Source: Candidatus Parcubacteria bacterium
GTDB taxonomy: Bacteria; Patescibacteriota; Minisyncoccia; JACPXH01
Reading direction: 5' to 3'
Assembly: GCA_016196625.1 (NCBI GenBank)
Contig: JACPXH010000006.1
Span: 32,660 to 96,659 of the forward strand
Length of the DNA stretch: 64,000 nt
Numbering within the stretch: position 1 is the first letter of the stretch; the number at the start of each line of letters is the position of its first letter. The position numbers were made by a program, and so were the translations under genes. This document shows positions 1,827-33,263 of this stretch, piece by piece. Below the pieces are notes generated by a model. The model did no database searches, was not told the DNA's origin, and was given only the letters and a program-made list of their open reading frames with translations.

Positions 1827-2897
1827 ATGGACTTTTTCCCCATTGGTTTCATCTTAGTCCTTGTGATCCTTGCGGTCGGCTTCTTCATGTTGTTCCGGCG
1901 GCTTTCCCGATTCGAGCAGGGCAGGGCAGCCGACCCGATGCTGCAATTTATGAAAGACGCGCTTGACCGCATTGAGGCGACGCGCCGGGAAATGCAGGGC
2001 ACGTTGAACGAACGATTCGATCAGTCGGCTCGCCTCATGCAGACGCAGTTGGGCGAGAGTGCCAAGATCGTGCGGGACGTTACGGAAAAACTGGTCAAGC
2101 TCGACGAGACTAACCGTCAGGTGGTGAATTTCGCCGATCAGCTTAAAAACCTCCAAGACATTTTGAAAAACCCAAAGCAGCGTGGGGTCTTGGGCGAATA
2201 TTATCTCGAGACCGTGCTCAAGAACGTGCTCCCGCCGGATTCATTTCAGATGCAGTATGCGTTTCGCGACGGCACGATTGTGGATGCGGCCATTTTTGTG
2301 AAAGACAAGATTATTCCGGTTGATTCCAAGTTTTCGCTCGAGAACTATAACCGCATTCTGGAGGCGCGGGAGCCAGCAGAACGCGAGCGGTATGAGAAGG
2401 CATTCCGGCAGGATTTGAAAAACCGGATTGATGAAACCTCCAAGTACGTCAAGCCCTCGGAAGGCACCATGGATTTTGCCTTCATGTTCATTCCGGCCGA
2501 GGCGGTGTTCTACGATCTCTTGGTCAACAAGGTTGGCGTGGTGGAGGGGCAAGACCTCATTGAGTATGCGTTTCGGGAAAGACACGTGATCATTGTTTCG
2601 CCGACCTCGTTCCTTGCGTATCTGCAAACGGTTCTGCAAGGACTCCGGGCGCTCCAAATTGAGGAATCGGCCAAAGAGATTCGGCAACGCGTTGAAGATT
2701 TGGGTCGGCATCTCGCAAGCTACGAGACGTACATGAAGAAATTGGGCGCGCATCTTGGCACGACCGTGAATGCCTACAACGCGGCCTACAAGGAACTCGG
2801 TAAAGTGGATAAGGACGTGCTGCGCATCACGGGGGAAGCCGTCGGCACAGAGCCGATTTCGTTACCGCGGCCGACCGAACAGGAGGATGAATCCTAA
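1827..2897 (+). CDS. rmuC: DNA recombination protein RmuC
   Basis: N-terminal TM helix and coiled coil, then the conserved RmuC core (GVLGEYYLETVL..., DFAFMFIPAEAVFYD). Length 356 aa. Confidence 0.85.
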   Translation: MDFFPIGFILVLVILAVGFFMLFRRLSRFEQGRAADPMLQFMKDALDRIEATRREMQGTLNERFDQSARLMQTQLGESAKIVRDVTEKLVKLDETNRQVVNFADQLKNLQDILKNPKQRGVLGEYYLETVLKNVLPPDSFQMQYAFRDGTIVDAAIFVKDKIIPVDSKFSLENYNRILEAREPAERERYEKAFRQDLKNRIDETSKYVKPSEGTMDFAFMFIPAEAVFYDLLVNKVGVVEGQDLIEYAFRERHVIIVSPTSFLAYLQTVLQGLRALQIEESAKEIRQRVEDLGRHLASYETYMKKLGAHLGTTVNAYNAAYKELGKVDKDVLRITGEAVGTEPISLPRPTEQEDES

Positions 2898-2912
2898 TAG
2901 TGTCGGTGTCTT

Positions 2913-3305
2913 ATGGCTGCGACCGCCCGTCAAGGTTTTCTGGCGACTTTACACGGCTGGTTCGCTTCAAGCTTTTGGCGCCGCCCGGCAGTGCTCTTCG
3001 CGGTTGGCGCGGCGCTGTTCCTCAACCTTGGCACATGGGTTGCGCTCGCTGTGGCCCTGCCCCGGAGTCCGTTTCCGTTTACGCTCCACTACACCGCGGC
3101 TCTCGGTGCTGATTTTTTTGGCACCCGCAGCCAGCTATTCATTGTCCCGGGGATTGGATTCTTGCTTCTGGGGCTCAACATCCTCCTTGCCGCGTGGCTC
3201 TGGAATCGCGAGCGGGCGCTCGCTGCGTTTGTGTTGGGCCTTACGCCGTTTGTGCAGATAGGATTGGCCGCGGGTAGCGTGTTTTTGATACTGGCGAATG
3301 CTTGA
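2913..3305 (+). CDS. hypothetical membrane protein
   Basis: ATG start 16 nt after the rmuC stop. Four predicted hydrophobic helices. No recognisable family. Confidence 0.45.
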   Translation: MAATARQGFLATLHGWFASSFWRRPAVLFAVGAALFLNLGTWVALAVALPRSPFPFTLHYTAALGADFFGTRSQLFIVPGIGFLLLGLNILLAAWLWNRERALAAFVLGLTPFVQIGLAAGSVFLILANA

Positions 3306-3346
3306 TTTAGCCGCGGCTAAATTGATTGTGTAACTGGCGGGCAATC

Positions 3347-3646
3347 TCAACAAGTTGTCACAAGGGTTAGGGTTTTTGATACGTAGTAGAGCGGATTTTC
3401 GAACAATTCCGGTGAGGAAAATCTGAAGCAGAATCCCCTCACGTATTTTTCAAGGTTGATTGACCAATGGTGATGATACATCCTTCGGACAAAGGTGCGG
3501 TAGTTGCCGAAGATTCCTTCCACCTCAGAGGTGTGCCGGAACTCGAACCTGCGGTGAATATCACGGCTGTGCTCGACCGGCCAGATGCGATCAATGCGCT
3601 GGTAGATTCCTGCGCCATCAGTCCAGAGCCGAGAACCAGGTTCCAC
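3347..3646 (-). pseudogene. IS1595-family (ISXO2-like) transposase, C-terminal fragment only
   Basis: 'LWTDGAGIY ... HTSEVEGIFGNYRTFVRRMYHHHWSINLEKYVRGFCFRFS' matches the IS1595 C-terminal region (TDgwkgY ... HTNtIEgfWs.lKR ... YHhvS.khLqrYldEf.fRyN). The N-terminal ~200 aa and terminal repeats were not found, so this is a decayed remnant. Confidence 0.6.
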
Positions 3647-3770
3647 GAATTGGAAGAGAAATGACGCGGCATGCTCCCGCTTGACTTGACTTTTAACTCT
3701 ATAATGATATAACCTTTGTACACCGTATTGTTGGCATGTCTCCCTAAAACTCTAGCCGGAGGAGGGCGCG

Positions 3771-4307
3771 ATGCGAAGGTTACTGAGGTGGGTGGCGGTA
3801 GGGTGTTTCCTGGTAGTGGCAATTGGGGCAGGAGGAGCCCTGTACCTCGCTTACTGGACTCCTTATCCCGAACCGCTGCGCTTCACCCTGCCGGATTTCA
3901 GCGGCAGGGGTGAGACGCAGTATAGGTGGCTTGGGGGTGGGGACTTTCTCCCTAGCGACCTGATAAAGCATGTTAGCTTGGGGGAGTTCACCTCCGCCGC
4001 GGCTAACTGTGCCGGCAAGGTGGTTTTTCTTTACGCCTATCCCCACCACGCGGGGACTGGCGTCTACGTGGAGTACGCCACGGCAGGAGGAGATAAGGGT
4101 TTTGTCTCTGCCTACCAGTTTGTCCCCCATGCGTGGAAAGGCTACAAGGTGGGGGCCGAGATGGCGATGTCTCGGAAGATCAGCTGGGATGGAAGAACGG
4201 TAGTAACCGTTCTTCCGGTTGATGACAGAGTGCTTGTGATGGGGGTATCTGTGATTCCTTTCGCCGTAGGCGGCCTCAGTGCGTTGGTGGCGTATCGAAA
4301 AAAGTGA
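3771..4307 (+). CDS. hypothetical protein with N-terminal TM/signal anchor
   Basis: Strong SD (GGAGGAGGG) 7 nt before the ATG. -35/-10-like TTGACT/TATAAC elements at 3681-3713. Intrinsic terminator immediately downstream. Confidence 0.55.
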   Translation: MRRLLRWVAVGCFLVVAIGAGGALYLAYWTPYPEPLRFTLPDFSGRGETQYRWLGGGDFLPSDLIKHVSLGEFTSAAANCAGKVVFLYAYPHHAGTGVYVEYATAGGDKGFVSAYQFVPHAWKGYKVGAEMAMSRKISWDGRTVVTVLPVDDRVLVMGVSVIPFAVGGLSALVAYRKK

Positions 4308-4372
4308 AGCTCCACGGGCAGAGCCCGTGGCCCTCTGCGACGGTGGGTAGAGCTACCGAGCGCAATCCCACG

Positions 4373-4409
4373 CCCCTCGACCATGCGGTCGAGGGGCCCC
4401 TATTTTTTT
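4373..4409 (+). terminator. rho-independent terminator (CCCCTCGACC-loop-GGTCGAGGGG + T7)
   Basis: Perfect 10 bp GC-rich stem followed by TATTTTTTT. Confidence 0.7.
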
Positions 4410-4448
4410 GTTGACTCGCCTCTTCTTTTTGGCTACGCTGGGTGAGCT

Positions 4449-4766
4449 ATGTTGGCCATTATTCAAACCGGCGGTAAGCAATATCTGGTTGAGCCGGGCC
4501 AGAAATTGAAAATCGAAAAGCTCCCCGCCGAAGCGGACAAGGAGGTTGTGTTTGATGAAGTGCTGCTCGTGGCTGACGAAAAGAAGGTGTCGGTGGGGAC
4601 CCCGCACGTCAAAGGCGCCGAGGTTACAGCCAAGGTTGTGCAGCAGGGCCGCGCGAAGAAAGTGATTGTGTTCCATTACCGCGCCAAAACCCGCTACCAC
4701 AAAAAAGCCGGCCATCGGCAGCCGTTCACCGAGGTGGAGATTACGAAAATCAATTCCGGTACATAG
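4449..4766 (+). CDS. rplU: 50S ribosomal protein bL21
   Basis: MLAIIQTGGKQYLVEPGQKLKIEKL... is the canonical bL21 N-terminus. Length 105 aa. Confidence 0.9.
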   Translation: MLAIIQTGGKQYLVEPGQKLKIEKLPAEADKEVVFDEVLLVADEKKVSVGTPHVKGAEVTAKVVQQGRAKKVIVFHYRAKTRYHKKAGHRQPFTEVEITKINSGT

Positions 4767-4775
4767 ACGTACGCC

Positions 4776-4813
4776 CACCATTCTAATGTATTAATACATT
4801 AGAATGGTGGGCG
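4776..4813. repeat. AT-rich perfect palindrome, copy 1 (CCCACCATTCTAATGTATTAATACATTAGAATGGTGGG)
   Basis: The same 24-26 bp core TTCTAATGTATTAATACATTAGAA recurs at 15841-15874 and 40199-40232. All copies are intergenic. Confidence 0.8.
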
Positions 4814-4884
4814 GGGGGTTCTTTGCACTATGGGTCATCGCGGGTTTGGGGTGGACTGAACACGGAACAGAGGAGGTGGACACG

Positions 4885-5373
4885 ATGAGGCAGGAGAATT
4901 TCTTCGAGTGGGTTGGGTTCCGGGACCTCGCCGATCATTGCCTAGACGCGCTCGCGGAGTATGCGCGATCGGGCGAGCTCGCGCCGGAGTGGCGAGCTCC
5001 AATTGAGGAGGCGAGGGAGTTCTGCATTGCTGTGCTTCAGGGCAGGCGCATGCTGGAGACGATGCAGTTTCTGGGGTGGCGGCGAGGGGTTCTCGAGGCC
5101 TGGGAGTGGGCGCACGACGTGATCAAGGTGCTCCGAAAAGAGGAGCATGTCGTGGAGTTCATGGAGGCCGAAGTCAGCCGCTACCTGGCGCTGCTCGATC
5201 TGTTGCTTATCCTGGAGAAGCCCGTGTTCTCGCGTGAGGACAGCGAGGCGCTGACTGTTTTCTTCAAGGCTCTCCGGCAGGTGGCGATGGCAAGGCAGGA
5301 GCGAGAGCGGCAGGAGCGGAACGCCGAACGCGATCCGTTCGGGTCTTGCTATCGTGCCTGCGCGGTGGCGTAA
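4885..5373 (+). CDS. hypothetical protein
   Basis: ATG at 4885 preceded by GAGGAGGTG. The ORF-track start at 4804 overlaps the palindrome and is probably too far upstream. A hairpin terminator follows at 5391-5420. Confidence 0.45.
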   Translation: MRQENFFEWVGFRDLADHCLDALAEYARSGELAPEWRAPIEEAREFCIAVLQGRRMLETMQFLGWRRGVLEAWEWAHDVIKVLRKEEHVVEFMEAEVSRYLALLDLLLILEKPVFSREDSEALTVFFKALRQVAMARQERERQERNAERDPFGSCYRACAVA

Positions 5374-5534: not shown

Positions 5535-6131
5535 CTAGCGACGGCCGGCCAAGGCCGCCGACAACGTTTCTTCGTCGGCGTACTCTAGGTCCCCGCCCTT
5601 GGGGAGTCCTCGGCCCAGGCGCGTTACGGGAATGTGCAATGACCCAAGCTGACGCTCGAGATAGAGCGCAGTCAGGTCTCCCTCGGTGGTGGGGTTGAAC
5701 GCAAGGACGACCTCGCGAACGTCCTTACCCTTACGGATACGATCAAGAAGCTCGTTGATTCTCACGCGGCGGTTGGCCTCGCGATCTCCGGCTGCGAGCA
5801 GCCCGCCGAGCACGTGGTAGACACCTCTAAACTTTTTGGTTTTTTCAATGGCGATTGCATCAGTTTCTTTTTCGACTGCGGCGATGAGGCCCTGATCGCG
5901 CCTCGGATCATCGCAGACCGAACAGCCCTTGCCGGTCTCGTCCGATGGCAGGAAACATTTTGGGCAGCGGTAGACTTCTGCATCGAGTTTGGCGATTGCT
6001 TCGGCCAGGCTCGCGCGCAGCTCTGTTGGCTGGCGCAAAAGCCAGTACGAGAGCCGGGCCGCAGTGCGCGGGCCGATGGTGGGGAGCTTCATCAGTTCGC
6101 TGATGAGGATTCTGACTGGTTTGGGAAGCAT
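5535..6131 (-). CDS. recR: recombination protein RecR
   Basis: HhH (LISELMKLPTIGPRTAARL), C4 zinc finger (CPKCFLPSDETGKGCSVCDD) and Toprim domain. The start is set at MLPKPV. The 17-aa upstream extension in the ORF track (MLRFARNDE...) is a translation of the hairpin repeat. Confidence 0.9.
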   Translation of the reverse strand: MLPKPVRILISELMKLPTIGPRTAARLSYWLLRQPTELRASLAEAIAKLDAEVYRCPKCFLPSDETGKGCSVCDDPRRDQGLIAAVEKETDAIAIEKTKKFRGVYHVLGGLLAAGDREANRRVRINELLDRIRKGKDVREVVLAFNPTTEGDLTALYLERQLGSLHIPVTRLGRGLPKGGDLEYADEETLSAALAGRR

Positions 6132-6158
6132 GGACGGATTCTTCGAGGCAACAATTTC

Positions 6159-6498
6159 GTCATTGCGAGCGAAGCGAAGCAATCTCGAGGAGATCTTGGT
6201 ATGACGGATTTCTACTTTCGATCAGTGCAATCTTTTTCTGACGTGATCCAGCTTTTATTTTCTTTTCGGCAGATATAGCATCTTCCGCAGTAGGAAATGT
6301 TTCGGAATAGACAAGTTTTCCGATCCGATATTTTATCGTGAACCCGTCAGGGGAGCCATTTCGATGTTCGTGCATCCGTCTCATGATGTCATTCGTCACG
6401 CCAGTATAGAAAACAGTGTTCCGTTTATTCGTAGCGATGTATACGAAATACTCTTTCGGCATGAGATTGCTTCGTCGCTTCGGCTCCTCGCAATGACG
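6159..6498. mobile_element. MITE-like element: ~33 bp inverted repeats (GTCATTGCGAGCGAAGCGAAGCAATCTC / GAGATTGCTTCGTCGCTTCGGCTCCTCGCAATGAC) flanking a GIY-YIG gene
   Basis: The inverted repeats abut both ends of the gene exactly: the stop codon lies inside the left repeat (6160-6162) and the start codon ATG (6460-6462) immediately abuts the right repeat. The same repeat pair recurs without cargo at 12760-12848, 14494-14564, 19278-19355, and in degenerate form at 15924-15978. Confidence 0.65.
6160..6462 (-). CDS. small GIY-YIG nuclease family protein
   Basis: MPKEYFVYIATNKRNTVFYTGVTNDIMRRMHEHRNG is a GIY-YIG domain (100 aa). The C-terminal LEIASLRSQ is encoded by the flanking hairpin repeat. 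Confidence 0.75.
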   Translation of the reverse strand: MPKEYFVYIATNKRNTVFYTGVTNDIMRRMHEHRNGSPDGFTIKYRIGKLVYSETFPTAEDAISAEKKIKAGSRQKKIALIESRNPSYQDLLEIASLRSQ

Positions 6499-8075: not shown

Positions 8076-8477
8076 ATGACGCTAGAGATGAAAAAGCGGT
8101 TGCGTAGTTTCGGGGTGTATGTGGTGAGGGGGATGGGCGTAGATCCGGCCACAGGAGCTTTGTTCAGTTACCCGTTCGTTGCTCTTTACCATGATACCGA
8201 AATGCCGACCGGGGAGGAGGTTGGGTTGCTTGAAGAAGCGGTGCGCATGCGTGCCAGGCGCTTCTTGCCCGGGGAGGTTCGTGGTTTCACCGCGAGGGAG
8301 CGAACACCGCAATCTTCCGGAAGATCGGCGGCGGACGGTGGACGTTCCGTAAACTCACGTGGACCGTGGGCCCCACGTGGTATTCGAAGCCGGGGGCACT
8401 CCGGGAGATCATCGCGGAGGCGATACGGTAGCGAGGCCTCGCGCGCCGAGGCAGGAGGGAAAAGATGGCGAACGTGA
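8076..8477 (+). CDS. hypothetical protein (C-terminal third R/S-rich, possibly mis-framed)
   Basis: ATG with an upstream GGA-rich spacer. The N-terminal 75 aa look protein-like. The remainder is low complexity. Confidence 0.3.
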   Translation: MTLEMKKRLRSFGVYVVRGMGVDPATGALFSYPFVALYHDTEMPTGEEVGLLEEAVRMRARRFLPGEVRGFTARERTPQSSGRSAADGGRSVNSRGPWAPRGIRSRGHSGRSSRRRYGSEASRAEAGGKRWRT

Positions 8478-9001
8478 TGGTGCTGCAATGGCGGGATTCC
8501 GAGAACGCATTTCTCGAACCGGAAAAGGGCCTCAAGGAGTTGCTCGCTGCGTGGCTGGACCGGACCCACGGCCAGAGCAAATTCAAGCCATTTTCCGCAT
8601 ACTTGGTCGAGCGGCTCGAGCCGATTGCCGAGATGATTGCAAGCGAGTTCGCGAAGGCGCACATGTCTGTTGAGGTCGTGGTGCTCTGGTGCGTGGTGCG
8701 CCAGAGCGGGCAGCCGTACCTCACGCTCGACTTATGCGTGAAAAGGGGGAGTGGAGACGCGCAGGGCTGTTACCAGATCTCTCGGCGCGATGTGATGCTC
8801 TCTTCGGAGGAGTCAACGTCAGCGACTCGCGAGCGAGTCGAGCGCTGGCTGGCAGACCTCGCGCAGGGGTTCACAAAGACCGATCCCGCGCTCCGGCTGG
8901 CCATTCGGGAGCTCGGGTGCGCGTTTTCCCGCAGGCGGACGATGCCGGAGGCATTGCAGACTGCTTTGTCCGTGGCAGGAAGCCGCAGGGCGGCGCGTTG
9001 A
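8465..9001 (+). CDS. hypothetical protein
   Basis: 178 aa ORF with balanced composition. No family recognised. Confidence 0.4.
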   Translation: MANVMVLQWRDSENAFLEPEKGLKELLAAWLDRTHGQSKFKPFSAYLVERLEPIAEMIASEFAKAHMSVEVVVLWCVVRQSGQPYLTLDLCVKRGSGDAQGCYQISRRDVMLSSEESTSATRERVERWLADLAQGFTKTDPALRLAIRELGCAFSRRRTMPEALQTALSVAGSRRAAR

Positions 9002-9026
9002 TGGGCGCAGTATAAGGAGGGAGAAG

Positions 9027-9458
9027 ATGGCGAAGCTGTTCTTTTCCAGCAAGGAAGACCTGCGAAGGATGGGGTACTCTGATTTGGTGTTCACTCACTG
9101 GCAAGACGGCGGCATCAGCCCCGCCGCCTTTCACCAAGAGGTCGGTCGGGCCTTCCTGCCTGCGGCGACTGCTCTTGTGAATGCGTTCGCCCTCGCGGGG
9201 ATGGAGGTTGATGCTACCGCAGTATGGAATGTCGAATCGTATGACAACGTGGGCGAGGTCCGTGTCTTCGCGGTCCATCTGGGCGTGCGAGTAGTCGGGA
9301 ACGGCGGGAACGGCTGGAGCTTCAAGGGGTTCGTAGTGGACACCCCCCTTGACTCAGATTGTTTGAAGGGGGGCGTCTTCGGAACGAGCTCTCGAGTTTC
9401 CTCACCGACGCCAATCAAAGGCTTGGGGGCATGTTTCTCGGCAAGGAGGAGAGATTAA
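9027..9458 (+). CDS. hypothetical protein, possibly continuing by frameshift into ORF 9359..9577
   Basis: SD GGAGGGAG before the ATG. C6 (9352-9357) and G6 (9368-9373) runs sit where the protein-like sequence switches frame. Confidence 0.35.
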   Translation: MAKLFFSSKEDLRRMGYSDLVFTHWQDGGISPAAFHQEVGRAFLPAATALVNAFALAGMEVDATAVWNVESYDNVGEVRVFAVHLGVRVVGNGGNGWSFKGFVVDTPLDSDCLKGGVFGTSSRVSSPTPIKGLGACFSARRRD

Positions 9459-13465: not shown

Positions 13466-13495
13466 TTGACATCTAGTTACTTATCGTAGTATAAT
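13466..13495 (+). promoter_or_regulatory. sigma70-type promoter TTGACA-18-TATAAT
   Basis: Near-consensus hexamers at 13466-13471 and 13490-13495. Confidence 0.6.
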
Positions 13496-13501
13496 GCTAT
13501 T

Positions 13502-13735
13502 TGTTGATTTGAGATCCAGCTTGAATTGTTGTTAGTTCTTGAAAACACCGCATTCCTCCACAAATCCGTGGGTTTCCGTGATTACCCTCCTACTCGCGGT
13601 CCGTCCTGAGAGCAATCAAGGGACGGGGGGTCCTTCTGGACTTTTAAACCCTCGGATTTGTGGAGGAATCGAATAGCGCGAAATGGGGGCGGAGCGGCTG
13701 CTAGGCAGCCGCTCCGCCCCAGAGTTCCGTTGACT
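13502..13735 (+). ncRNA. candidate structured RNA / cis-regulatory leader upstream of ORF 13756
   Basis: A 23 bp long-range helix (13549-13573 with 13647-13671) encloses a ~73 nt multi-hairpin insert. A perfect 16 bp hairpin follows at 13686-13720, then SD GAGGGAGGA and the ATG at 13756. Confidence 0.3.
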
Positions 13736-13755: not shown

Positions 13756-14199
13756 ATGGTCATGAACGGTAATGGACAGGCGGCATGGGCCGAGGCGGGG
13801 ACCCGGGTAACGGCGTTCCTCGCCGGCCGCGTGGATTATCCGCAGGCGACCGGGCTGGCCGCGGACGTCGCGGCGCTCCGGGCGTACGGCCTGGATCGCC
13901 AGCGGGACTGGCGGTCGCGGGTTTTGAGCGCCGAGCAGGCGCTCTCAGCGATGCGGCGGGTTGAGGCCGAGGCCGCAGCCGCGGCCGAGCGGGTCAGGCA
14001 GGCCGCCGTGTTCAAGACGGCGTACCGGCCCGCGCCGGCGATCGAGCGCCTCACCGGCCGCGGTATCAACGCCGGAATCCGGTGCGGCCGGTCGAACACG
14101 GCCGAGCGGGCGCGGCGCGAGGTGAACCGGGCCGCGCGGGCAGCGGACAACAGCGCCGCGGCCGAGGGGTTCGGCTGCGGAACCAAGAAAGGAGGATAG
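13756..14199 (+). CDS. hypothetical protein (very high GC, Ala/Arg-rich)
   Basis: Strong SD. 147 aa ORF with GC well above the window's average. Confidence 0.4.
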   Translation: MVMNGNGQAAWAEAGTRVTAFLAGRVDYPQATGLAADVAALRAYGLDRQRDWRSRVLSAEQALSAMRRVEAEAAAAAERVRQAAVFKTAYRPAPAIERLTGRGINAGIRCGRSNTAERARREVNRAARAADNSAAAEGFGCGTKKGG

Positions 14200-25033: not shown

Positions 25034-25107
25034 GCGCCCGTAGCTCAGTCCGGTAGAGCAGCTGGCTTTTAACCAGATGGTCGGAGGTTCGAATCCTCCC
25101 GGGCGCA
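25034..25107 (+). tRNA. tRNA-Lys (anticodon UUU)
   Basis: Cloverleaf: acceptor GCGCCCG/CGGGCGC, D-arm GCTC-AGTCCGGTA-GAGC, anticodon loop CTTTTAA (U33, UUU, A37), T-arm GGAGG-TTCGAAT-CCTCC, discriminator A. CCA is not encoded. Confidence 0.85.
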
Positions 25108-25109
25108 CT

Positions 25110-26018
25110 GTGAAAGCGAATGGTTTCCGAGAGGCCTGCCGACGTTTGAGGACGGACGGCGCCACGCTCGGCGAAATCGTGGCTGCAACGAGACGACCGA
25201 AAAGTTCGGTCTACTTTCACATCCAAGACATTAAACTCTCGGAAGAGTTCCGAGAGGCCCAATACGAGCGAGCCACCAAACGGATTATCGAGTTTAACGA
25301 GAGTCGGAGGGGAAAGAGTGCAGCTGGGCGTCATCCGGTTCCGTTCACTGTTTGGACCGTACCATTCGTTGAGCTAGTCAGTCATTTGTTGTTCGACGGA
25401 GAAATAAGTCGCAACGCGTGCGTGTACACCAACCGGAACCGGATGCTGATTCAGCGCGTGGCGCGGTTGATGCGACGAGTATACGATCATCAACCTCGAG
25501 AACTTGAGTCAACGCCGGGGGTGTATCGGATTTCTTATTATAACGTGGAGCTGGCCGCATACTTGCAGGGGAAAGCGGACGAACTTTTGCAGCGGATTTC
25601 AATCGCTCCACAGGAATTGAAGCTAACATTTCTCCGTTCATTTTTCGACGATGAAGGATCGGTTTATTTCATCCGCAGGAAACGACTGGTTCGGGGCTAT
25701 CAGCACAATGACAGCATTCTTAAACTCGTTCAGCAGCTATTGAAAGACTTTAGCATCAAAAGTAAGACTGACAAGAAATACCACGAGATCGTTATTAGTG
25801 GTCGAGAGCATCTGGAGCGTTTCTCGGCCGAGATCAACTTTTCGCCGTCCGTGGCGGTTAACCCGGATCGAAAAAACAGCATTTGGAGGCGGCCGCTCGA
25901 AAAACGCGAGATACTCCGAGTAGCTCTTGCTTCCTACCGCCGCGACGTTGTGGCCACCCGCTGTCCGTCGAGGCCGATAAGCGTAGACGACGTTACTATG
26001 GGCGCACCAAATGTATAA
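25110..26018 (+). CDS. LAGLIDADG-family homing endonuclease (two-motif, free-standing), GTG start
   Basis: Two LAGLIDADG-like motifs ~100 aa apart (VSHLLFDGEIS and TFLRSFFDDEGSV). Basic N-terminal region. The ORF begins 3 nt after the tRNA-Lys 3' end. The upstream part of the track ORF overlaps the tRNA. Confidence 0.5.
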   Translation: MKANGFREACRRLRTDGATLGEIVAATRRPKSSVYFHIQDIKLSEEFREAQYERATKRIIEFNESRRGKSAAGRHPVPFTVWTVPFVELVSHLLFDGEISRNACVYTNRNRMLIQRVARLMRRVYDHQPRELESTPGVYRISYYNVELAAYLQGKADELLQRISIAPQELKLTFLRSFFDDEGSVYFIRRKRLVRGYQHNDSILKLVQQLLKDFSIKSKTDKKYHEIVISGREHLERFSAEINFSPSVAVNPDRKNSIWRRPLEKREILRVALASYRRDVVATRCPSRPISVDDVTMGAPNV

Positions 26019-26511
26019 CCATCGTCCCGAGAATTATCATTGCCCGCTCTGCCAACTGGCATCGGGAGTTGACCTCGACCAGGACCACTCGCTCCAAAGT
26101 GATCTGGTCTATAAGGACGAGTTAATAATGGCATTTATCGCGAGGGACAAATGGCCCAATAATCCCGGACACGTTCTGATAGCTCCCGTTGGTCATTACG
26201 AAAATATTTATGACCTCCCGGACACGCTTATTCCGAAAATTCATTCGTTAGAAAAACTGATAGCGCTTGGTATCAAGCAGGAGTACCGTTCAGACGGCGT
26301 AAGCTCTCGCCAGCATAACGAGCCGGACGGCGGGCAAGATGTGTGGCACTATCATTTGGCAGTTTTTCCTCGGTATAAAAATGATGAACTCTATCTGAAT
26401 ATATACAAAAGACAAAGAAGTGAGCCGAAAGAACGAGCACAGTACGCGGAGAAACTAAGAAGATACCTTAGCGATAAAGCTGGCCCTCACATCTCCAGTC
26501 TGCACCGATAA
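26011..26511 (+). CDS. HIT-family (histidine triad) hydrolase
   Basis: CPLC N-terminal zinc-binding motif ... VWHYHLAVFP is an HxHxHxx-type triad. AT-rich. Confidence 0.55.
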   Translation: MYNHRPENYHCPLCQLASGVDLDQDHSLQSDLVYKDELIMAFIARDKWPNNPGHVLIAPVGHYENIYDLPDTLIPKIHSLEKLIALGIKQEYRSDGVSSRQHNEPDGGQDVWHYHLAVFPRYKNDELYLNIYKRQRSEPKERAQYAEKLRRYLSDKAGPHISSLHR

Positions 26512-26615
26512 AAACTGCAAAACTTGTCAGCCGAAGCCTTGGCGAAAGAGGGAAACTTGTTTTAACTTGGGAGGAACTTGTTCTTCACCGTCGTATCCGG
26601 TAGTATATAAGTGGT

Positions 26616-27107
26616 ATGTCCCTACACCGGAAAAAGTACCAAAATGCGGTTCTGTACTTGTGCCGGAAGCTAAAAGGCGAAGTACGCGGCAAGAAAAAGC
26701 TAGCGAAACTACTCTATTTCGCAGATTTTGATTTGTACGAGAAAAGTCAGAAATTAATAACTGGTGATGTTTATTATGCGTTTCCAATGGGGCCAGTGCC
26801 ATCTGCGTTGGAAGCAATTACTGCGGAAATGGCAAAAAAGAAAATGCTCGGTGTTGAGCACGTGGAAGAACGAGAAGGGTACAACCTGACGGAAGTATAT
26901 AAGTGTCTTACTGAACCAGACCTTTCTGTATTTGACGATGAAGAAAAGAAAATGCTTGACCGTATTATCGTAAAATATGGTCATCTAACAGGCAAGCAGC
27001 TAGAAGAGTTATCCCACGCCGAAGCACCATATATCGGTACGGAATTGCGAAAACGAATTCCCTACGAACTTGCCTTCTACCGTGGTACAGATTTTAGTGG
27101 TTCATGA
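26616..27107 (+). CDS. Panacea-domain (DUF4065, SocA-like) putative antitoxin
   Basis: KKLAKLLYFADFDLYEKSQKLITGDVYYAFPMGPVPSAL is the Panacea/DUF4065 core. Overlaps the next ORF by 4 nt (ATGA). Confidence 0.6.
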   Translation: MSLHRKKYQNAVLYLCRKLKGEVRGKKKLAKLLYFADFDLYEKSQKLITGDVYYAFPMGPVPSALEAITAEMAKKKMLGVEHVEEREGYNLTEVYKCLTEPDLSVFDDEEKKMLDRIIVKYGHLTGKQLEELSHAEAPYIGTELRKRIPYELAFYRGTDFSGS

Positions 27108-27472
27108 TTCAGTTTCTGTACCACGACAGCTTTCAGAAAGAAATCGCCGCCCTAGAGCGGCGCTTTCATACTATACGCGATGGTCTTTCTGCGTTTGAGA
27201 AATTGTGTGAAGTACAATTCAATCCAGCAAGTCCGCGACAGGTGATTGCGCCCGCAAAATTGCATCGTGTCACGCAAAACGATATTTGGACGCTCTGGAA
27301 AGTTGAGCTTGTTGTACCGAATTCCGGCTTGCGTCCGAACCAGTGGCCACGAATGTGGTTTGTAGTGAGGGGCGCGATTATTGCGTTTTTGTGCGTCTCG
27401 TCTCATATTGGTAACTACAACGATGAGAGTATGAATCGCCTTGCTTTGTCGAGGGCGTCCGACTTCTTTTGA
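27104..27472 (+). CDS. putative toxin partner, RelE/ParE-like C-terminus
   Basis: N-terminus MIQFLYHDSFQKEIAALERR and C-terminus RMWFVVRGAIIAFLCVSSHIGNY resemble RelE/HigB (R..Y.v....iIl.v.hH..Y). Translationally coupled to the Panacea gene. Confidence 0.4.
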   Translation: MIQFLYHDSFQKEIAALERRFHTIRDGLSAFEKLCEVQFNPASPRQVIAPAKLHRVTQNDIWTLWKVELVVPNSGLRPNQWPRMWFVVRGAIIAFLCVSSHIGNYNDESMNRLALSRASDFF

Positions 27473-29006: not shown

Positions 29007-29408
29007 ATGGCGAAAGCGCACAAAACCGCAGCGAATGGCCCGGTGAATATTCGAGCTGAATTCAGAAAGCTTGGTATTTTGGTCGAGCATGGAAACGATC
29101 AATTTCGAGCGGTTCGGGAGCAATACGGGAGTATTCAGAGGACGCTCGATAGCCACACACAGGCCCTCGCCACCCATACGCGTATTCTCGACTACCATTC
29201 GAGACTTCTTGAGCATCATTCCGAACTTCTCGAAGCGCACTCGGAGACATTGAAGTCGCATACCGAGATGATTGCTAGTTTATCGGTAGATATGGCGATT
29301 GTGAAACAGGATATTGCGCTCATCAAAAGCGCTTTTAAGCAGAAGGTTGATCGAGATGAGTTCGCTGCTTTAGAGCGGCGAGTGGCGCTTCTCGAGAGGA
29401 AGAGGTAG
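29007..29408 (+). CDS. hypothetical coiled-coil protein with H-x3-L heptad repeats
   Basis: TTGACG-16-TATACT promoter at 28964-28991. Repeats of the form LDSHTQALATHTRILDYHSRLLEHHSELLEAHSETLKSHTEM. Confidence 0.5.
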   Translation: MAKAHKTAANGPVNIRAEFRKLGILVEHGNDQFRAVREQYGSIQRTLDSHTQALATHTRILDYHSRLLEHHSELLEAHSETLKSHTEMIASLSVDMAIVKQDIALIKSAFKQKVDRDEFAALERRVALLERKR

Positions 29409-29433
29409 GAAGCGGTTTTTATTACGCTTCAAG

Positions 29434-29468
29434 CCAAAATCCGGCCCCAGGGGCCGGATTTTGGCTTC
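29434..29468. terminator. bidirectional hairpin terminator (GCCAAAATCCGGCCCC-AGG-GGCCGGATTTTGGC)
   Basis: Perfect 15 bp stem flanked by A/T runs on both sides. Confidence 0.65.
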
Positions 29469-29536
29469 ATGGGCTTGCGTGGATTTTTAACAATGGCTCT
29501 ATAGAGCCGTTTCCGCGTTTTATTTGTTTGAACGCA

Positions 29537-29565
29537 TTGACAACTAACTTTCAAGGTGCTATAAT
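29537..29565 (+). promoter_or_regulatory. consensus sigma70 promoter TTGACA-17-TATAAT
   Basis: Perfect hexamers with a 17 bp spacer. Drives transcription into direct-repeat copy 1. Confidence 0.65.
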
Positions 29566-29576
29566 GTAAGAGTAAA

Positions 29577-29661
29577 ATAGAAGTTTCAGATGGAGTTCCT
29601 TGAGACAAAACCAGAATGGCGCCGCCGGCCTCCGCCAGATGGCGGGAACGGGCGAGAAGGA
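29577..29661 (+). repeat. ~85 bp direct repeat, copy 1 (flanks vapBC)
   Basis: ATAGAAGTTTCAGATGGAGTTCCTTGAGACAAAACCAGAATGGCGCCGCCGGCCTCCGCCAGATGGCGGGAACGGGCGAGAAGGA. About 93% identical to 30387-30472. Confidence 0.85.
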
Positions 29662-29691
29662 AGAGAGGAAGAAGGAGTTCTTCAAAAAATA

Positions 29692-30066
29692 TCACAAGGT
29701 AAGAATGTTGAGTTCGGCTATCTTTTTGAAATCCCGAACGTTGCGCGTGACCAGAGATGAGTTTGTCAGGAGAGCAGTTGCGGCGATGATGCTATCTCCG
29801 AGCTGAAGCCCGTAGCGTCGGCGAACGAGCGCGGCAATATCGGCCATCTGGGCATCAACCGGAACAAGTACGAATTGTTCAAGCAGACGATAGATTTTTT
29901 TCTCTTCATTCTCGCGGAGAATCGGCGCGGCGAAAAGTTCAAGACGAGTAATTGCGGAAACGAAAAGCCGCTCGCCATCGAGTAGCCATTGCTCGAGCGT
30001 TTTGCTGACTTGTTGGTCACGCTCGAGGTGATAGATGAGGATGTTCGTGTCAATTGTCAAGGGCAC
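29692..30066 (-). CDS. vapC: PIN-domain toxin VapC (GTG start)
   Basis: PLTIDTNILIYHL ... LVTRNVRDF is the PIN domain with its conserved acidic residues. Confidence 0.85.
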   Translation of the reverse strand: MPLTIDTNILIYHLERDQQVSKTLEQWLLDGERLFVSAITRLELFAAPILRENEEKKIYRLLEQFVLVPVDAQMADIAALVRRRYGLQLGDSIIAATALLTNSSLVTRNVRDFKKIAELNILTL

Positions 30067-30078
30067 AGGTGCATGGAA

Positions 30079-30255
30079 TCAGCGGCGGACTGTGGCGTAG
30101 AGTTTGCGCATGGCGCGCTGGTACTTGATGGGGTCAAGCTTGCGGTTGCGCCACAAACCAGCGGTCTCACGGATGACCTTTTTAATCTCCGTTGGATCCC
30201 GGCGCAGTAGGGCCATAGCGCCAATCGTTGTTTTCTCCCGTGTTTTCGTGATCAT
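30079..30255 (-). CDS. vapB: putative VapB antitoxin (58 aa, not in ORF track)
   Basis: Hand translation: MITKTREKTTIGAMALLRRDPTEIKKVIRETAGLWRNRKLDPIKYQRAMRKLYATVRR. Stop lies 12 nt before the vapC GTG. Size and position fit an antitoxin. Confidence 0.5.
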   Translation of the reverse strand: MITKTREKTTIGAMALLRRDPTEIKKVIRETAGLWRNRKLDPIKYQRAMRKLYATVRR

Positions 30256-30386
30256 ACGCGTTCAGTATTACGAATCCAATTGCAATAGTCAAGGAATGTT
30301 GCAGGTCGAGAGAGGTTGGGAATTTAAGTTCTCGTTCTCTCTCGGTTCAAAGATGGGTCGATGTTTCTTCTTCGCAATTGCTGATG

Positions 30387-30472
30387 ATAGAAGTTTCAGA
30401 TGGAGTTCCTTGAGACAAAAACCAGAATGGCGTCGCCGGCCTCTGCCAGATGGCGGAAACGGGCGAGAGGGA
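30387..30472 (+). repeat. ~85 bp direct repeat, copy 2
   Basis: See 29577-29661. Followed by SD GAGGGAGGTGAGTGAG and an ATG at 30483. Confidence 0.85.
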
Positions 30473-30482
30473 GGTGAGTGAG

Positions 30483-31021
30483 ATGAAGTGCGATGAGGCA
30501 TTGGCAGCGGCCAAGCCGTTGTCGGGCGTAAAGATGGCGCAGTATCAATCGCCCGAGACGGGCGAGCGGTACCGCGCCGGGCTCGAATCCGAATCCAACG
30601 GTCGGTTTTGGATGTGGAAGATCGTTGGGGGGGGTGGGAGGTTGGTCGGGCCCGACGGATTCCCGGCTTCCTCCTCAAGGATCTCCGTGAGCGGGACGGT
30701 TGGATACCGGATCCGCCGACGGGAGACGGAGAGGGGCGTCGGGCAGCGCGTGAGGCCTCGGCGGCCCGCACGCGAGCTCTCGAAGAGGCTCGCCAGCGGG
30801 TGTCAGAGGCCGAGGCGCGCCGCGCAGCCGAGGCCCCGCTGGTTGCGTCTCGGGAGGCAGCCGCGGCCAAGGAGGCCCAGCGGCAGGCGCTCCTAAAAAA
30901 GAAAGAGCTCCTCGAGCGCAAGCTCAAAGAGTTCGAGGGGACTGGTCGCGAGGAGCAGGTTTTGGAATGGCTCCTCAAGGCGGAGGAAGAGCTGGCCGCC
31001 ATTGAAAAAGGAGGTGAGTGA
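30483..31021 (+). CDS. hypothetical protein interrupted by a -1 frame change at a G8 tract (30627-30634)
   Basis: The N-terminal frame (MKCDEALAAAKPLSG...) and the C-terminal frame (coiled-coil EARQRVSEAEARRAAEA...EELAAIEKGGE) join at GTTGGGGGGGGTGGG. Confidence 0.35.
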
Positions 31022-31022
31022 G

Positions 31023-31226
31023 ATGGCCGGTAAGCGCGTGACCGCCGTCTGCCCGGCGTGCAGCTGGGTGTGGCGGGTCTCGCAGGGCGCCGCGACGCGG
31101 TGCCCGTGCGGAACGAGGACCGCCCCCGACCGGTGGGGGCAGAAATACTCGGTCAGCCGCCGTCGCGGCCGAGTGGTGATCGTCTTCGCGGCGAAAACCG
31201 TGAAGAAGGTCGTGAAAGTGTACTAG
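31023..31226 (+). CDS. small zinc-ribbon protein
   Basis: AAAGGAGGTGAGTGAG-ATG. CPACS...CPCG motif. 67 aa. Confidence 0.4.
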   Translation: MAGKRVTAVCPACSWVWRVSQGAATRCPCGTRTAPDRWGQKYSVSRRRGRVVIVFAAKTVKKVVKVY

Positions 31227-32228
31227 GCGGCGAAAAGCAGCCGCACTAAGCTGTCGAACCGGCCACTACGCTCAACCGCTCAAACGGGCAACCGTGAGAG
31301 CAGACGGGAGCGCACGCCGGGGAAAATAACCGACCGAGTGCGGGGCGAGCTGGCGGAATTGGGGTTTTCGTCAGTTCAGCAAGGTCGGCGCGACGTGTTG
31401 AGTCAAACCGGAGGCTAACGCACGGCGTAAGGAAGATAAATCCGGAAGACAGCGCGCGGGACCAGTCGTGGTGGCGTTGTCGGGGCAGGCGAGATGCCTG
31501 ATCAACCCTCGCATCCATCCCCGGAGGGAAGGTCGAAATTTCGTGCAGTTCTTTAGCGGGCAAGAAAGCGTCTTGTCCCATCATCCGAGTCCATCAGCAG
31601 TTTGCTGGCGGATTGCGATGGGGAGGAGAGATAACCACAGACAACCTGACCGAACGTTCCGCGGCATGCCGCAGATCAAGCGCGCGGCGAACTGCGAATG
31701 ACGGTGGTTGAGCGCTGTGGGCCCGATGGGCAAGCCAGAGAGCGGAAATGCTCAGGCGACTCTACTCCTTCTCTCTTCTGAATTCCGAAATAGTTTGGGG
31801 TTCAGACGAGGGAATTGGAAAGTTCGTTGGCAAAACCGCGGATCCATTCCGCACCGCGCCCGACGGGGATCGGGCTTTGTGCCGAGTCGCGTTGAGCGAT
31901 GGGGCAGTGAGGTACCTTGGCAGAAACAGCGGGTTGAACCCGCACGCACGCCCCAGTCGAGTTCGCTTCGTGCGGACCGAATGAGGGGCGAGGAGAGAGC
32001 TATGTTCGTTGTGTTTGGGGTGAAAGTTGGTACTGAGCACGTTTTTGGCCGCTTTCCAAATTTGGAAGAGGCCAAGGATGAGGGCGAAAAGGTTGGATCG
32101 CCCCACCGGGAATTCCCAGGTCTCTGGGGGACCAGGGGTCGGGCAATTGGCATTGGGCCCAAGTGGCGTGGGCGAGCGGGGATGCGGCGGAGGATGCCGT
32201 CGCAGAGAAGTTGAGCAGGTTGGCGATT

Positions 32229-32522
32229 ATGGCGGATTTCCGAAACACGCTGCTCGATCTGGTCAGCGTGTTCGGCTGGCAGCTCGAACACCTCTCGCCT
32301 GCGGCGAGAGCGAGGATCCGCAGGGATGCTTTCGGCGGGTTACCGCCCGCCGAAAGCTCGCAGCCTAAATTTCTGGGGGCGTGGGAGGCGGTTTCCTTTT
32401 CGTCTTCGTCGAACCGCTGCATCGTTTGTGCGGCGAAGCAGGAGACAGTGGGTGCCTACGCCATCTGCCCGCGGTGCGGCACTTCTTGTGTCGTTGCCGC
32501 GATGCTCCTTGGCGTGAAGTAG
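32229..32522 (+). CDS. hypothetical protein with C-terminal zinc ribbon (CIVC...CPRCG)
   Basis: Protein-like ORF. A hairpin terminator follows at 32528-32560. Confidence 0.4.
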   Translation: MADFRNTLLDLVSVFGWQLEHLSPAARARIRRDAFGGLPPAESSQPKFLGAWEAVSFSSSSNRCIVCAAKQETVGAYAICPRCGTSCVVAAMLLGVK

Positions 32523-32671
32523 TCAAATGCGGGAGGACGTCTTGAGGCGACGTCCTCCCTTCCACCGAATCCATCAGCGTTGTTGGTGGGTTCAGTGGAG
32601 CGGGAGTTCCTTGCCGGGAACCGTTGGAGTTTCAGCTCGCCAACCGGCGGGTCTGAAGCAAGGAGGGAGCG

Positions 32672-32839
32672 ATGGAGCGAACGGCGCAGGAGATCGCGAA
32701 GTACGAGGCCGGGATTGATCGCATTTTCGCCGAGACCACGGCGGGGATGTTTGCTCCCGGTCTGATGGGAACGCTCTTCGCGATTCCCGTTGTGGCCGGC
32801 GGGATCGCGCTCATCGTAGTCAAATTCTTCCCGCCCTAA
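32672..32839 (+). CDS. small membrane protein (55 aa, below ORF-track cutoff)
   Basis: AAGGAGGGAGCG-ATG. Hand translation MERTAQEIAKYEAGIDRIFAETTAGMFAPGLMGTLFAIPVVAGGIALIVVKFFPP. Confidence 0.3.
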   Translation: MERTAQEIAKYEAGIDRIFAETTAGMFAPGLMGTLFAIPVVAGGIALIVVKFFPP

Positions 32840-32858
32840 GGAAAGGAGGAGGGATGCA

Positions 32859-33053
32859 ATGATGTTCATGGCGAGGTATCTATTTCCTATCTGGGGCGTT
32901 GTTTTGCTCGCAGGGGCCGGTTCGATGGCGTGGGACTTCTACGGCGTACCGGTGGTGCTTCCACCGCACGTCGCCCGGGCCATCGGCGGCATGGCTCTCA
33001 CCGGGGCGGCTGCGTTCGTTTGCAGCGCCCTGGCGTGGTCGGAGAGGAGGTGA
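32859..33053 (+). CDS. small membrane protein
   Basis: AAGGAAAGGAGGAGGG-ATG. Two hydrophobic helices. 64 aa. Confidence 0.35.
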   Translation: MMFMARYLFPIWGVVLLAGAGSMAWDFYGVPVVLPPHVARAIGGMALTGAAAFVCSALAWSERR

Positions 33054-33263
33054 GCAGAGTGATCTGGCGCGCGTGGCGTTTTTATTGGATTGTGAACGGA
33101 ATCGTCTGCTGGTCATGGGCCGAAGTGCGCGAAGCCCGGGCCAAGTAGACAGACCGCACCACAAGGAGGTGATGCGGACGGGCAGGCCGAGTAATCCAGC
33201 CTGCCCCTTCCACCGAGCTAATCTCGTGTGAGGTTGGTTCAGGGGAGGTGTGGCCTTGAAAAG

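Follow-up and report, generated by a model that had tools for sequence, protein, structure and literature searches.

A predicted vapBC toxin-antitoxin operon between two copies of a gene leader in a variable island of Candidatus Parcubacteria

Analysis of a 64-kb window (the whole stretch of DNA studied here) from a 97-kb chromosomal contig of a Candidatus Parcubacteria metagenome-assembled genome (MAG) revealed a predicted vapBC toxin-antitoxin (TA) pair, an intact minus-strand operon that lies between two copies of the leader of a plus-strand gene starting at position 30483. Comparison of this filled site with related contigs, in which the same leader occurs once and vapBC is absent, supports an insertion or recombination event in the lineage of the window. 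As the origin of the structure we favor, with about even confidence, a Campbell-type (homology-driven) insertion at the leader, with the TA pair stabilizing the repeat-flanked insert.

The direct repeat, which extends over 29577-29678 and 30387-30489, was recovered by a repeat finder, MAFFT alignment, and self-BLAST (E = 4e-31), and self-BLAST revealed no other direct repeat longer than 42 nt in the window. The two copies are identical at all 34 of their first 34 nt, after which a 1-nt indel (A4 versus A5) is found, and the 85/86-nt core (29577-29661 versus 30387-30472) contains four substitutions. The resulting identity of 94% agrees with the preliminary description of this region, which had reported two ~85-bp direct repeats, ~93% identical, with a 1-nt indel. 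Over 96-103 nt the identity is 89-90%, with decay across the purine-rich Shine-Dalgarno (SD) region; the SD/start part of copy 1 is only ~70% identical to that of copy 2, and the upstream sequences are ~50% identical. As a unit, the repeat runs from the start of the leader to approximately +7 of gene 30483. A search for the unit elsewhere, as had been proposed, located a 24-nt core of the leader at these two sites only in the 64-kb window, with 3 mismatches allowed.

Leader copy 1 (29577..29661, plus strand), the extra copy according to the repeat alignments and the comparisons below, is comprised of a 5′ module (ATAGAAGTTTCAGATGGAGTTCCTTGAGAC), an A-rich linker, and a GC hairpin. It is followed by a decayed SD/start stub (29662..29678, plus strand), which aligns as AGGAAGAGAGGAAGAAGGAGT versus GGGAGGTGAGTGAGATGAAGT in copy 2 and contains neither an ATG nor an open reading frame (ORF). 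The SD and ATG have thus been lost from copy 1 (GGGAGGTGAGTGAGATG to AGGAAGAGAGGAAGAAG), no coding remnant was found after it, and the copy abuts the 3′ end of vapC, with 14-30 nt separating it from the vapC stop codon. Leader copy 2 (30387..30482, plus strand), the orthologous copy, ends with the SD GGAGG and terminates in GGAGGTGAGTGAG, directly followed by the ATG at 30483; this is as previously described, yet the gene that begins there is frameshifted. Between the vapB start codon and the start of copy 2 lie 131 nt, which include the promoter-like site of vapB, and the earlier statement that a repeat sits immediately 5′ of vapB is accordingly loose.

The toxin gene, vapC (29692..30066, minus strand), encodes a 124-residue PIN-domain protein matching PF01850 with E = 2.4e-22 (80 bits versus a cut-off of 23.6), and its matches to the NCBIfam VapC models fall below their cut-offs. 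Alignment with a VapC of known structure (PDB code 7by2_B) revealed that Asp6, Glu43, Asp91, and the TRNxxDF motif are identical, in agreement with the acidic active-site residues expected of a PIN domain. Homologues of the protein number 103 and are mostly from the candidate phyla radiation (CPR) or metagenomes; exact-protein look-ups of the window VapC and of the upstream gene found neither on record. The vapB-type antitoxin gene (30079..30255, minus strand) encodes 58 residues, including the conserved motif RETAGLWRxRKxxPxxYQRAMR, and ends 12 nt before vapC. Its product has no match in Pfam or NCBIfam and belongs to a small antitoxin family, with 40-53% identity to the proteins encoded by short genes that precede the VapC relatives of L027, L028, and L039 (L-labels denote comparison contigs). 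The promoter-like site of the operon, TTGACT-17-AATACT (30264..30292, minus strand), agrees with the consensus at 9/12 positions and is a consensus match only.

Scanning of the island ORFs (those of the window, L001, and L038, the contigs of the relatives being incomplete) revealed no transposase or recombinase domain, and no terminal inverted repeats flank 29679-30386. An attC-like site is likewise absent from the cassette, where the repeat and hairpin, read on both strands, contain no GTTRRRY/RYYYAAC pair and the nearest approach to such boxes is GTCTGAAAC / GTTTCAG. A distant-mode blastn search of phage and plasmid collections with 29400-30700 produced no match, and a literature search for repeat-flanked vapBC insertions returned nothing relevant. 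A diversity-generating retroelement was considered and rejected, as a reverse transcriptase is absent, neither repeat is located at the 3′ end of a gene, and other differences between the copies do not fit; the only point toward it is that some copy differences fall at A positions of copy 1.

Relatives of gene 30483 were found on four comparison contigs (L001, L024, L038, and L002). L001 (GCA_964522735.1) is syntenic with the window through lysS at ~80% nucleotide identity, with matching blocks at 571-1960 (window 30386-31812), 3680-5028 (window 31906-33255), and 8128-9263 (lysS), and carries one leader directly before the orthologue and no vapBC there. The same is true of L024, a Hainich groundwater contig identified by DNA scan, which has one leader and the orthologous gene, and of L038 (GCA_964373035.1), which is also syntenic through lysS and has one full leader before a family member. 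In L002, the 3′ half of the leader is joined to a gene with a different N terminus and the same C-terminal coiled coil. The preliminary description had proposed a check of orthologous loci for a single leader without vapBC, and L001, L024, and L038 provide exactly such sites; vapBC together with a second leader is therefore the derived arrangement.

Synteny with all three of these relatives begins at the leader, the flanks farther upstream being unrelated in every genome, and the 5′ edge of the leader is a recombination breakpoint in every comparison. With copy 1, the relatives (L001, L024, and L038) share sequence from precisely ATAGAAG (29577) onward, whereas their homology to copy 2 reaches 17-23 nt upstream of ATAGAAG (by BLAST, L038 13-142 matches window 30364-30485 and L024 524-785 matches window 30370-30651). 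BLAST and alignment identify the sequence directly upstream of copy 2 (30364..30386, plus strand; TTTCTTCTTCGCAATTGCTGATG) as the remnant of a native palindrome, consisting of its loop and the inner half of its 5′ arm. Copy 2 keeps the native upstream context and copy 1 does not; therefore, copy 2 is the orthologous copy, and the promoter and copy 1 are extra. The earlier proposal that vapBC was inserted into, or recombined within, the leader and duplicated it consequently stands in that the structure is derived and the breakpoint lies at the leader, although a simple split between promoter and gene does not hold, since copy 2 keeps 23 nt of native upstream sequence. Two polymorphic sites read C/C in copy 1 and L001 and T/T in copy 2 and L002b, variants that would fit, weakly, a donor and a recipient of different lineages.

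Copy 1 is preceded by a consensus sigma-70-type promoter with a TG extended -10 element (TTGACA-17-TGnTATAAT; 29537..29565, plus strand), which matches at 12/12 positions and confirms the perfect TTGACA-17-TATAAT promoter originally noted. Two perfect promoter sites are present in the 64-kb window versus none in 100 shuffles, and a 12/12 extended -10 promoter is very unlikely to have arisen by chance. The predicted start of transcription is at ~29572, ~5 nt before copy 1, and RNA made from this promoter should include leader copy 1 and continue through vapC and vapB in antisense orientation. Such a transcript may silence vapBC, feed gene 30483, or yield a small RNA. No terminator bounding a small RNA from copy 1 was found, terminator-like sites occurring here in the number expected by chance. 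The promoter was rejected as part of the vapBC cassette, as no convergent strong promoter exists at 8 other PIN/vapBC loci. Farther upstream, a perfect hairpin with 18-bp arms (100% complementary) and 1 nt between them (29431..29467, plus strand) follows the gene at 29007-29408 and is likely both the terminator of that gene and the left limit of the unit. The second perfect promoter of the window (TTGACA-18-TATAAT at 13466-13495) is followed by a leader of ~260 nt with a ~20-bp perfect palindrome (ATTCCTCCACAAATCCG ... CGGATTTGTGGAGGAAT) in the region 13540-13675 and a 147-residue ORF starting at 13756.

The leader itself is better conserved than its surroundings. Copy 2 and the L001 leader are 93.9% identical, compared with 60% identity in the opening 144 nt of the coding sequence and 47% in the 100 nt upstream. 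The leader is a lineage-specific, strongly conserved non-coding module with sharp edges that belongs to an ORFan gene family. Apart from copy 1, the complete 85-nt leader with its GC hairpin and SD region occurs solely before members of the gene-30483 family. Its first ~30 nt recur without TA genes as three plus-strand copies in L038 and one in L002, with degenerate copies in L001 and at window 31802. The preliminary description had held that a multicopy dispersed element unrelated to TA loci would speak against its proposal, and the repeat has this character in its first ~30 nt only. The sole gathering-score match to Rfam in the window was a tRNA, and a permissive Rfam scan of 29400-30600 produced no match to the leader, with low-scoring, chance-level matches elsewhere in the region. 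Four leader patterns searched against IMG/VR returned nothing or chance matches within coding sequences of AT-rich phages, a 22-mer of the 3′ module returned only a chance Sphingobium match among GTDB species genomes, and of the 23 matches to a 19-mer of the 5′ module in JGI metagenomes only L024 was real.

The sub-repeats (CAGATGGAG/CAGATGGCG) and GC hairpin that had suggested a structured leader RNA are indeed present in the leader unit, but such a structure is not demonstrated. When the 85-nt unit was folded, its stability was no better than that of shuffled sequences (z = -0.3 and -0.6 for the two copies), RNAalifold analysis of five leader sequences predicted 27 pairs, none of which shows a compensatory change, and L024 has lost the inner GC hairpin by deletion. 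The leader does contain an invariant UUCCUU that is complementary to the SD region and could pair with it. A leader peptide was rejected, as L001 and L038 have ACG in place of the ATG within CAGATGGAG and indels disrupt the frame.

The first ~20 nt of the leader correspond to the 3′ arm of a recurrent gene-boundary hairpin. In L001, L024, and three L038 sites, ATAGAAGTTTCAGAYGGRG forms the 3′ arm of a ~24-bp imperfect hairpin with CTCCATCCGAGATTTCTAT as its 5′ arm, closed by a tetraloop in some cases and by an inserted mini-hairpin in others; z scores for the fold are -2.3 to -4.3 in the relatives. Diverged hairpins with co-varying arms (for example, CCTCTGA/TCAGAGG replacing CATCCGA/TCAGATG) precede other plus-strand genes in L001, L038, and the window (31771/31802). 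The family form is CCYYCnTCYGA ... TCAGAnGRRGG, on the plus strand with variable loops at island gene boundaries, and its sites with co-varying arms are L038 1-70, 2357-2430, 3773-3865, and 5653-5693, L001 153-199, 3638-3683, and 5749-5798, and window 31771-31812, all on the plus strand. Within the 64-kb window, the 3′-arm motif has three copies, all on the plus strand and all in the island; a simple best-complement arm score was unusable, as 11% of random positions score at least 10/11. At the filled site, the hairpin fold has been lost from copy 2 (z = +0.39), which retains the loop but no more than the inner half of the 5′ arm, and the 5′ arm at copy 1 is replaced by the consensus promoter. 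The hairpins could be processing sites, stabilizers, terminators, or recombination joints. Reading the hairpin as a K-turn or attC site was rejected on the grounds that the sequences do not fit, as was a fixed-spacing promoter composed of an upstream box and ATAGAAG, where the spacer varies by ~25 nt.

VapC relatives 58-67% identical to the window protein are found in many unrelated CPR contexts, with no homology to the leader there. In another CPR genome, represented by separate assemblies (L028 from ENA and L029 from NCBI), a direct repeat (L028 4601-4755 versus 6087-6240, 155 nt and 97% identical; L029 1963-2050 versus 3449-3535) brackets vapB, vapC, and a 196-residue ORFan between greA and dnaX. 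The repeat unit here spans the divergent intergenic region in full and continues into dnaX for 37 nt, and the left (far) copy in L028 carries a dead dnaX stub. In L039, the upstream region of pilM is duplicated (1617-1759 versus 2412-2656) as repeats of 35 and 61 nt that are 82-94% identical and, located upstream of vapB and of pilM, flank a vapBC pair, with vapC truncated to 99 residues. L028/L029 and L039 represent two independent loci of the same VapC subfamily with the same anatomy as the vapBC locus of the window. In L001, an 84-nt direct repeat (2067-2150 versus 5034-5117; 98% identical) surrounds 2.9 kb that includes a PIN pair different from that of the window. Relative to the window, L001 has an insertion at 1960-3680 with a 93-residue minus-strand gene and the PIN pair (2603-3165), which sits where the window has a single hairpin element (31801-31930).

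In the favored mechanism, a ~0.8-kb segment with a self-contained, opposite-strand vapBC would have been joined to the locus by recombination within the leader. In this model, which fits all junctions, a donor fragment with vapC and vapB, followed by the palindrome remnant, the leader, and ~7 nt from the start of the gene, would have circularized, and a single crossover in the ~100 nt of leader homology with a recipient promoter-leader-gene would then yield, in order, promoter, copy 1, dead stub, vapC, vapB, native-type remnant, copy 2, and gene. The upstream copy would keep the consensus promoter of the recipient and lose the SD and ATG, whereas the downstream copy would keep the remnant, SD, ATG, and gene; copy 1 would now be transcribed as a non-coding RNA antisense into vapC. 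An identical product would result from unequal exchange between variants of the island, and the Campbell-type scheme also reproduces L028. As expected of Campbell-type events, the insert is flanked by direct repeats that are the shared homology, and the empty sites are single-copy. An insert between direct repeats could be excised by recombination and the TA pair would kill the segregants; loss would thereby be penalized, which would explain the presence of vapBC inside surviving inserts of this type. In a chromosomal integron, TA cassettes with their own promoter stabilize repeat-bounded cassette arrays (PMC13108822). Inferred elements of this model are its circular intermediate, the direction in which events ran, transcription from 29537, and stabilization by the TA pair. 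The earlier description of the locus as a footprint of TA-cassette mobility or of a recombination site thus holds insofar as the structure was generated by recombination; the leader is a module of the host or the island and is not TA-linked, and the cassette contains no mobility functions.

Several observations weigh against this mechanism. The upstream flank of copy 1 is conserved in no relative and the left junction can consequently be neither dated nor polarized; neither a circular or excised form nor a recipient allele with the promoter and a single leader was observed; and 85-155 bp of homology is short for RecA-dependent recombination. The C/T sites lie in a hairpin that tolerates a change from C-G to U-G and could reflect recurrent mutation. 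Bracketing repeats are missing at four of the nine PIN/vapBC loci (L027, L033, L040, and L042) and ambiguous at L031, and a 129-nt 5′-region (leader) repeat in L033 brackets a non-TA gene (T2SSE), such that the pattern is recurrent and neither universal nor exclusive to TA loci. All comparators are, moreover, metagenomic contigs.

The two copies may instead be independent paralogous modules, copy 1 having once headed its own gene that was later deleted or replaced by vapBC, an alternative we regard as possible, if on the unlikely side. L038 has three plus-strand module copies within 4 kb before different genes, the third of which dead-ends against a minus-strand gene as copy 1 does, and L002 has two modules before successive genes, with the leader 3′ half heading a gene with a different N terminus; the two window copies also carry different variants. 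However, different units have only the first ~30 nt in common, whereas copy 1 is full-length with a stub resembling the SD/start of gene 30483 and no coding remnant after it, and the repeats of L028 and L039 are 5′ regions of housekeeping genes rather than array modules. Regardless of origin, copy 1 may have been kept for a function, in which the promoter and leader copy 1 would produce an abundant non-coding RNA that silences vapBC through convergent or antisense transcription or titrates a factor that acts on the leader of gene 30483. The 94% identity of the leader, compared with ~70% in the SD/start and ~50% upstream, suggests selection or gene conversion, a 12/12 extended -10 promoter is improbable by chance, and its transcript would be antisense to vapC and vapB. 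A recent duplication with sharp boundaries would nevertheless give the same identity profile, no small-RNA terminator was found beyond chance level, and none of the other vapBC loci examined (8) has such a promoter; retention for function is considered unlikely. Still more speculative, and improbable at present, is that the hairpin and leader modules are the joints of an undescribed CPR cassette-exchange platform, integron-like and lacking attC and IntI, in which ORFan units and self-promoted vapBC units would be swapped by recombination at a conserved structured site and the promoter-driven copy 1 would also act as an antisense or decoy RNA on vapBC.

A long target-site duplication, in which staggered cuts at insertion near +7 of the gene led to ~100 nt being duplicated by fill-in, would account for the three loci at which 90-155 nt are duplicated and the duplication stops between a few and 37 nt into the neighboring gene. 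It predicts a native remnant to the left of copy 1, the opposite of that observed beside copy 2, and neither a transposase, integrase, terminal inverted repeats, nor conserved cassette ends were found. The duplication lengths also vary between loci, and known prokaryotic transposable elements typically duplicate only a few to ~14 bp of target, compared with 85-103 nt here; this explanation is judged to be highly unlikely. Finally, the duplication could be an artifact of metagenome assembly, such as a chimeric join or a collapsed strain variant, given that the window comes from a MAG contig and that the ends of contigs L038 and L002 fall at modules. This can hardly be credited, as an indel and several substitutions distinguish the copies, which are situated well within a contig of 97 kb, the operon is complete with tight junctions, and equivalent structures occur in independent assemblies (L028 from ENA and L029 from NCBI).

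The gene served by the leader (30483..31021, plus strand) encodes an ORFan coiled-coil protein and is frameshifted at a run of eight G residues (30627-30634). The frame-corrected product is 55% identical to P0002 over 100% of its length, and L024 has G6 at the same tract and is in frame; the locus is one coiled-coil ORFan, frameshifted in this assembly, where the G8 tract could reflect an assembly error, a pseudogene, or a phase-variable tract. A small Cys-rich (CxxC...CxC) gene (31023..31226, plus strand), conserved in L001 and L038, is translationally coupled to it through the junction GGAGGTGAGTGAGATG. The 16 nt of this junction are identical at the leader/gene boundary and at the intercistronic boundary between the coiled-coil gene (...KGGE*) and the next gene, with sites at window 30470-30485 and 31010-31025, L001 657 and 1156, and L002 504 and 1255. 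This suggests that units are swapped at the junction, as in L002, where the leader 3′ half heads another gene.

Downstream of the Cys-rich gene is a region of ~590 nt (31226-31812, plus strand) that has no convincing ORF and has counterparts in L001 (1376-1960), L038 (1084-1480), and L002 (1533-1651). Over 270 alignment columns, the window and L001 are 97.8% identical, compared with ~60-80% in the neighboring coding sequences. RNAalifold analysis of three sequences predicted 130 pairs, 13 of which have compensatory double changes, and one helix is almost wholly re-paired in L038. No Rfam match to this region was found at gathering score or E ≤ 1, and it is a candidate for a new large structured RNA of Parcubacteria.

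The gene order of the window is dnaK, dnaJ, an NYN-domain gene, tRNA-Lys (25034-25108), the island, lysS, a D-Ala-D-Ala carboxypeptidase gene, mraY, and murD. The interval from tRNA-Lys to lysS, within which the vapBC unit is located, consists of ~9 kb of ORFan and accessory genes and is a hypervariable island in a small group of groundwater Parcubacteria. A prophage was rejected, as the PHROG matches of the region proved to be lysS and the D-Ala-D-Ala carboxypeptidase, and no att-like second copy of the tRNA-Lys 3′ end is present in the window. Directly after tRNA-Lys, at 25077-27472, are a LAGLIDADG_3-domain ORF, the longest reading of which overlaps the tRNA-Lys 3′ end, a HIT-family gene, a SocA/Panacea antitoxin-like gene, and a 122-residue ORFan. 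These genes resemble an accessory or defense-type cluster and include no integrase.

TA modules move between genomes, and the entry of a small cassette is rarely visible outside plasmids, transposons, and integrons. Here, a filled site can be compared base by base with three empty sites, albeit on an evidence base of a handful of metagenomic contigs. The signature, a 90-155-nt duplication of the 5′ region of the adjacent gene with a dead stub at the far end, recurs at two independent loci of the same VapC subfamily. If the signature is general, it would provide a simple marker of recent TA insertions in MAGs and would support homology-guided capture and addiction-based retention in the small, recombination-poor genomes of the CPR. 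It would also flag the conserved leader/hairpin family and the neighboring candidate structured RNA in a lineage for which we know of almost no regulatory RNA.

The predicted operon resembles type II VapBC systems in its PIN toxin with conserved acidic residues, small upstream antitoxin gene, promoter-like site, and scattered contexts, and differs in that the window antitoxin belongs to no Pfam or NCBIfam family. As in Campbell-type integration, or in gene restoration by integrative elements that bear a copy of their target (such as prophages that duplicate tRNA 3′ ends), the unit has flanking homology repeats, one of which restores an intact gene with its 5′ region and the other of which is a dead stub, and empty sites have one copy; in contrast to these cases, no integrase or att core was found, the shared part is a leader plus the first codons, and the insert is 0.8 kb of vapBC alone. 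The features of insertion sequence and transposon cassettes are missing, with no transposase domain or flanking inverted repeats present and a duplication of 85-103 nt rather than a short one. The hairpins recall REP/BIME, ERIC, and Correia-type repeats, being ~24-bp imperfect hairpins that are multicopy between genes in the relatives, with co-varying arms and variable loops. They are, however, confined to one island and to the plus strand, with no copies elsewhere in the 64 kb; neither a target duplication nor a RAYT-type transposase was seen, and the 5′ arms in the window are lost. Riboswitch-type or SD-sequestering leaders are comparable in their location between promoter and SD, their conservation relative to the coding sequence, and the invariant UUCCUU complementary to the SD region, but the leader has no Rfam match, no compensatory support, only shuffled-level stability, and an inner hairpin that is dispensable in L024.

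A close parallel is found in the TA cassettes of sedentary chromosomal integrons, such as the Vibrio cholerae superintegron, where a self-promoted TA unit also lies between direct repeats of ~100 nt. Chromosomal integrons likewise form hypervariable arrays of small, mostly ORFan genes in which a penalty on losing repeat-bounded DNA has been proposed (PMC13108822). In contrast to integrons, the window has no R″/R′ RYYYAAC/GTTRRRY boxes, no integron integrase was found in the island ORFs scanned, and the repeats here constitute the leader of the gene that follows, together with its SD, rather than 3′ recombination sites. The known theme is that of TA cassettes between direct repeats in variable arrays, and the new element is the recurrent duplication of a 5′ region with a dead stub.

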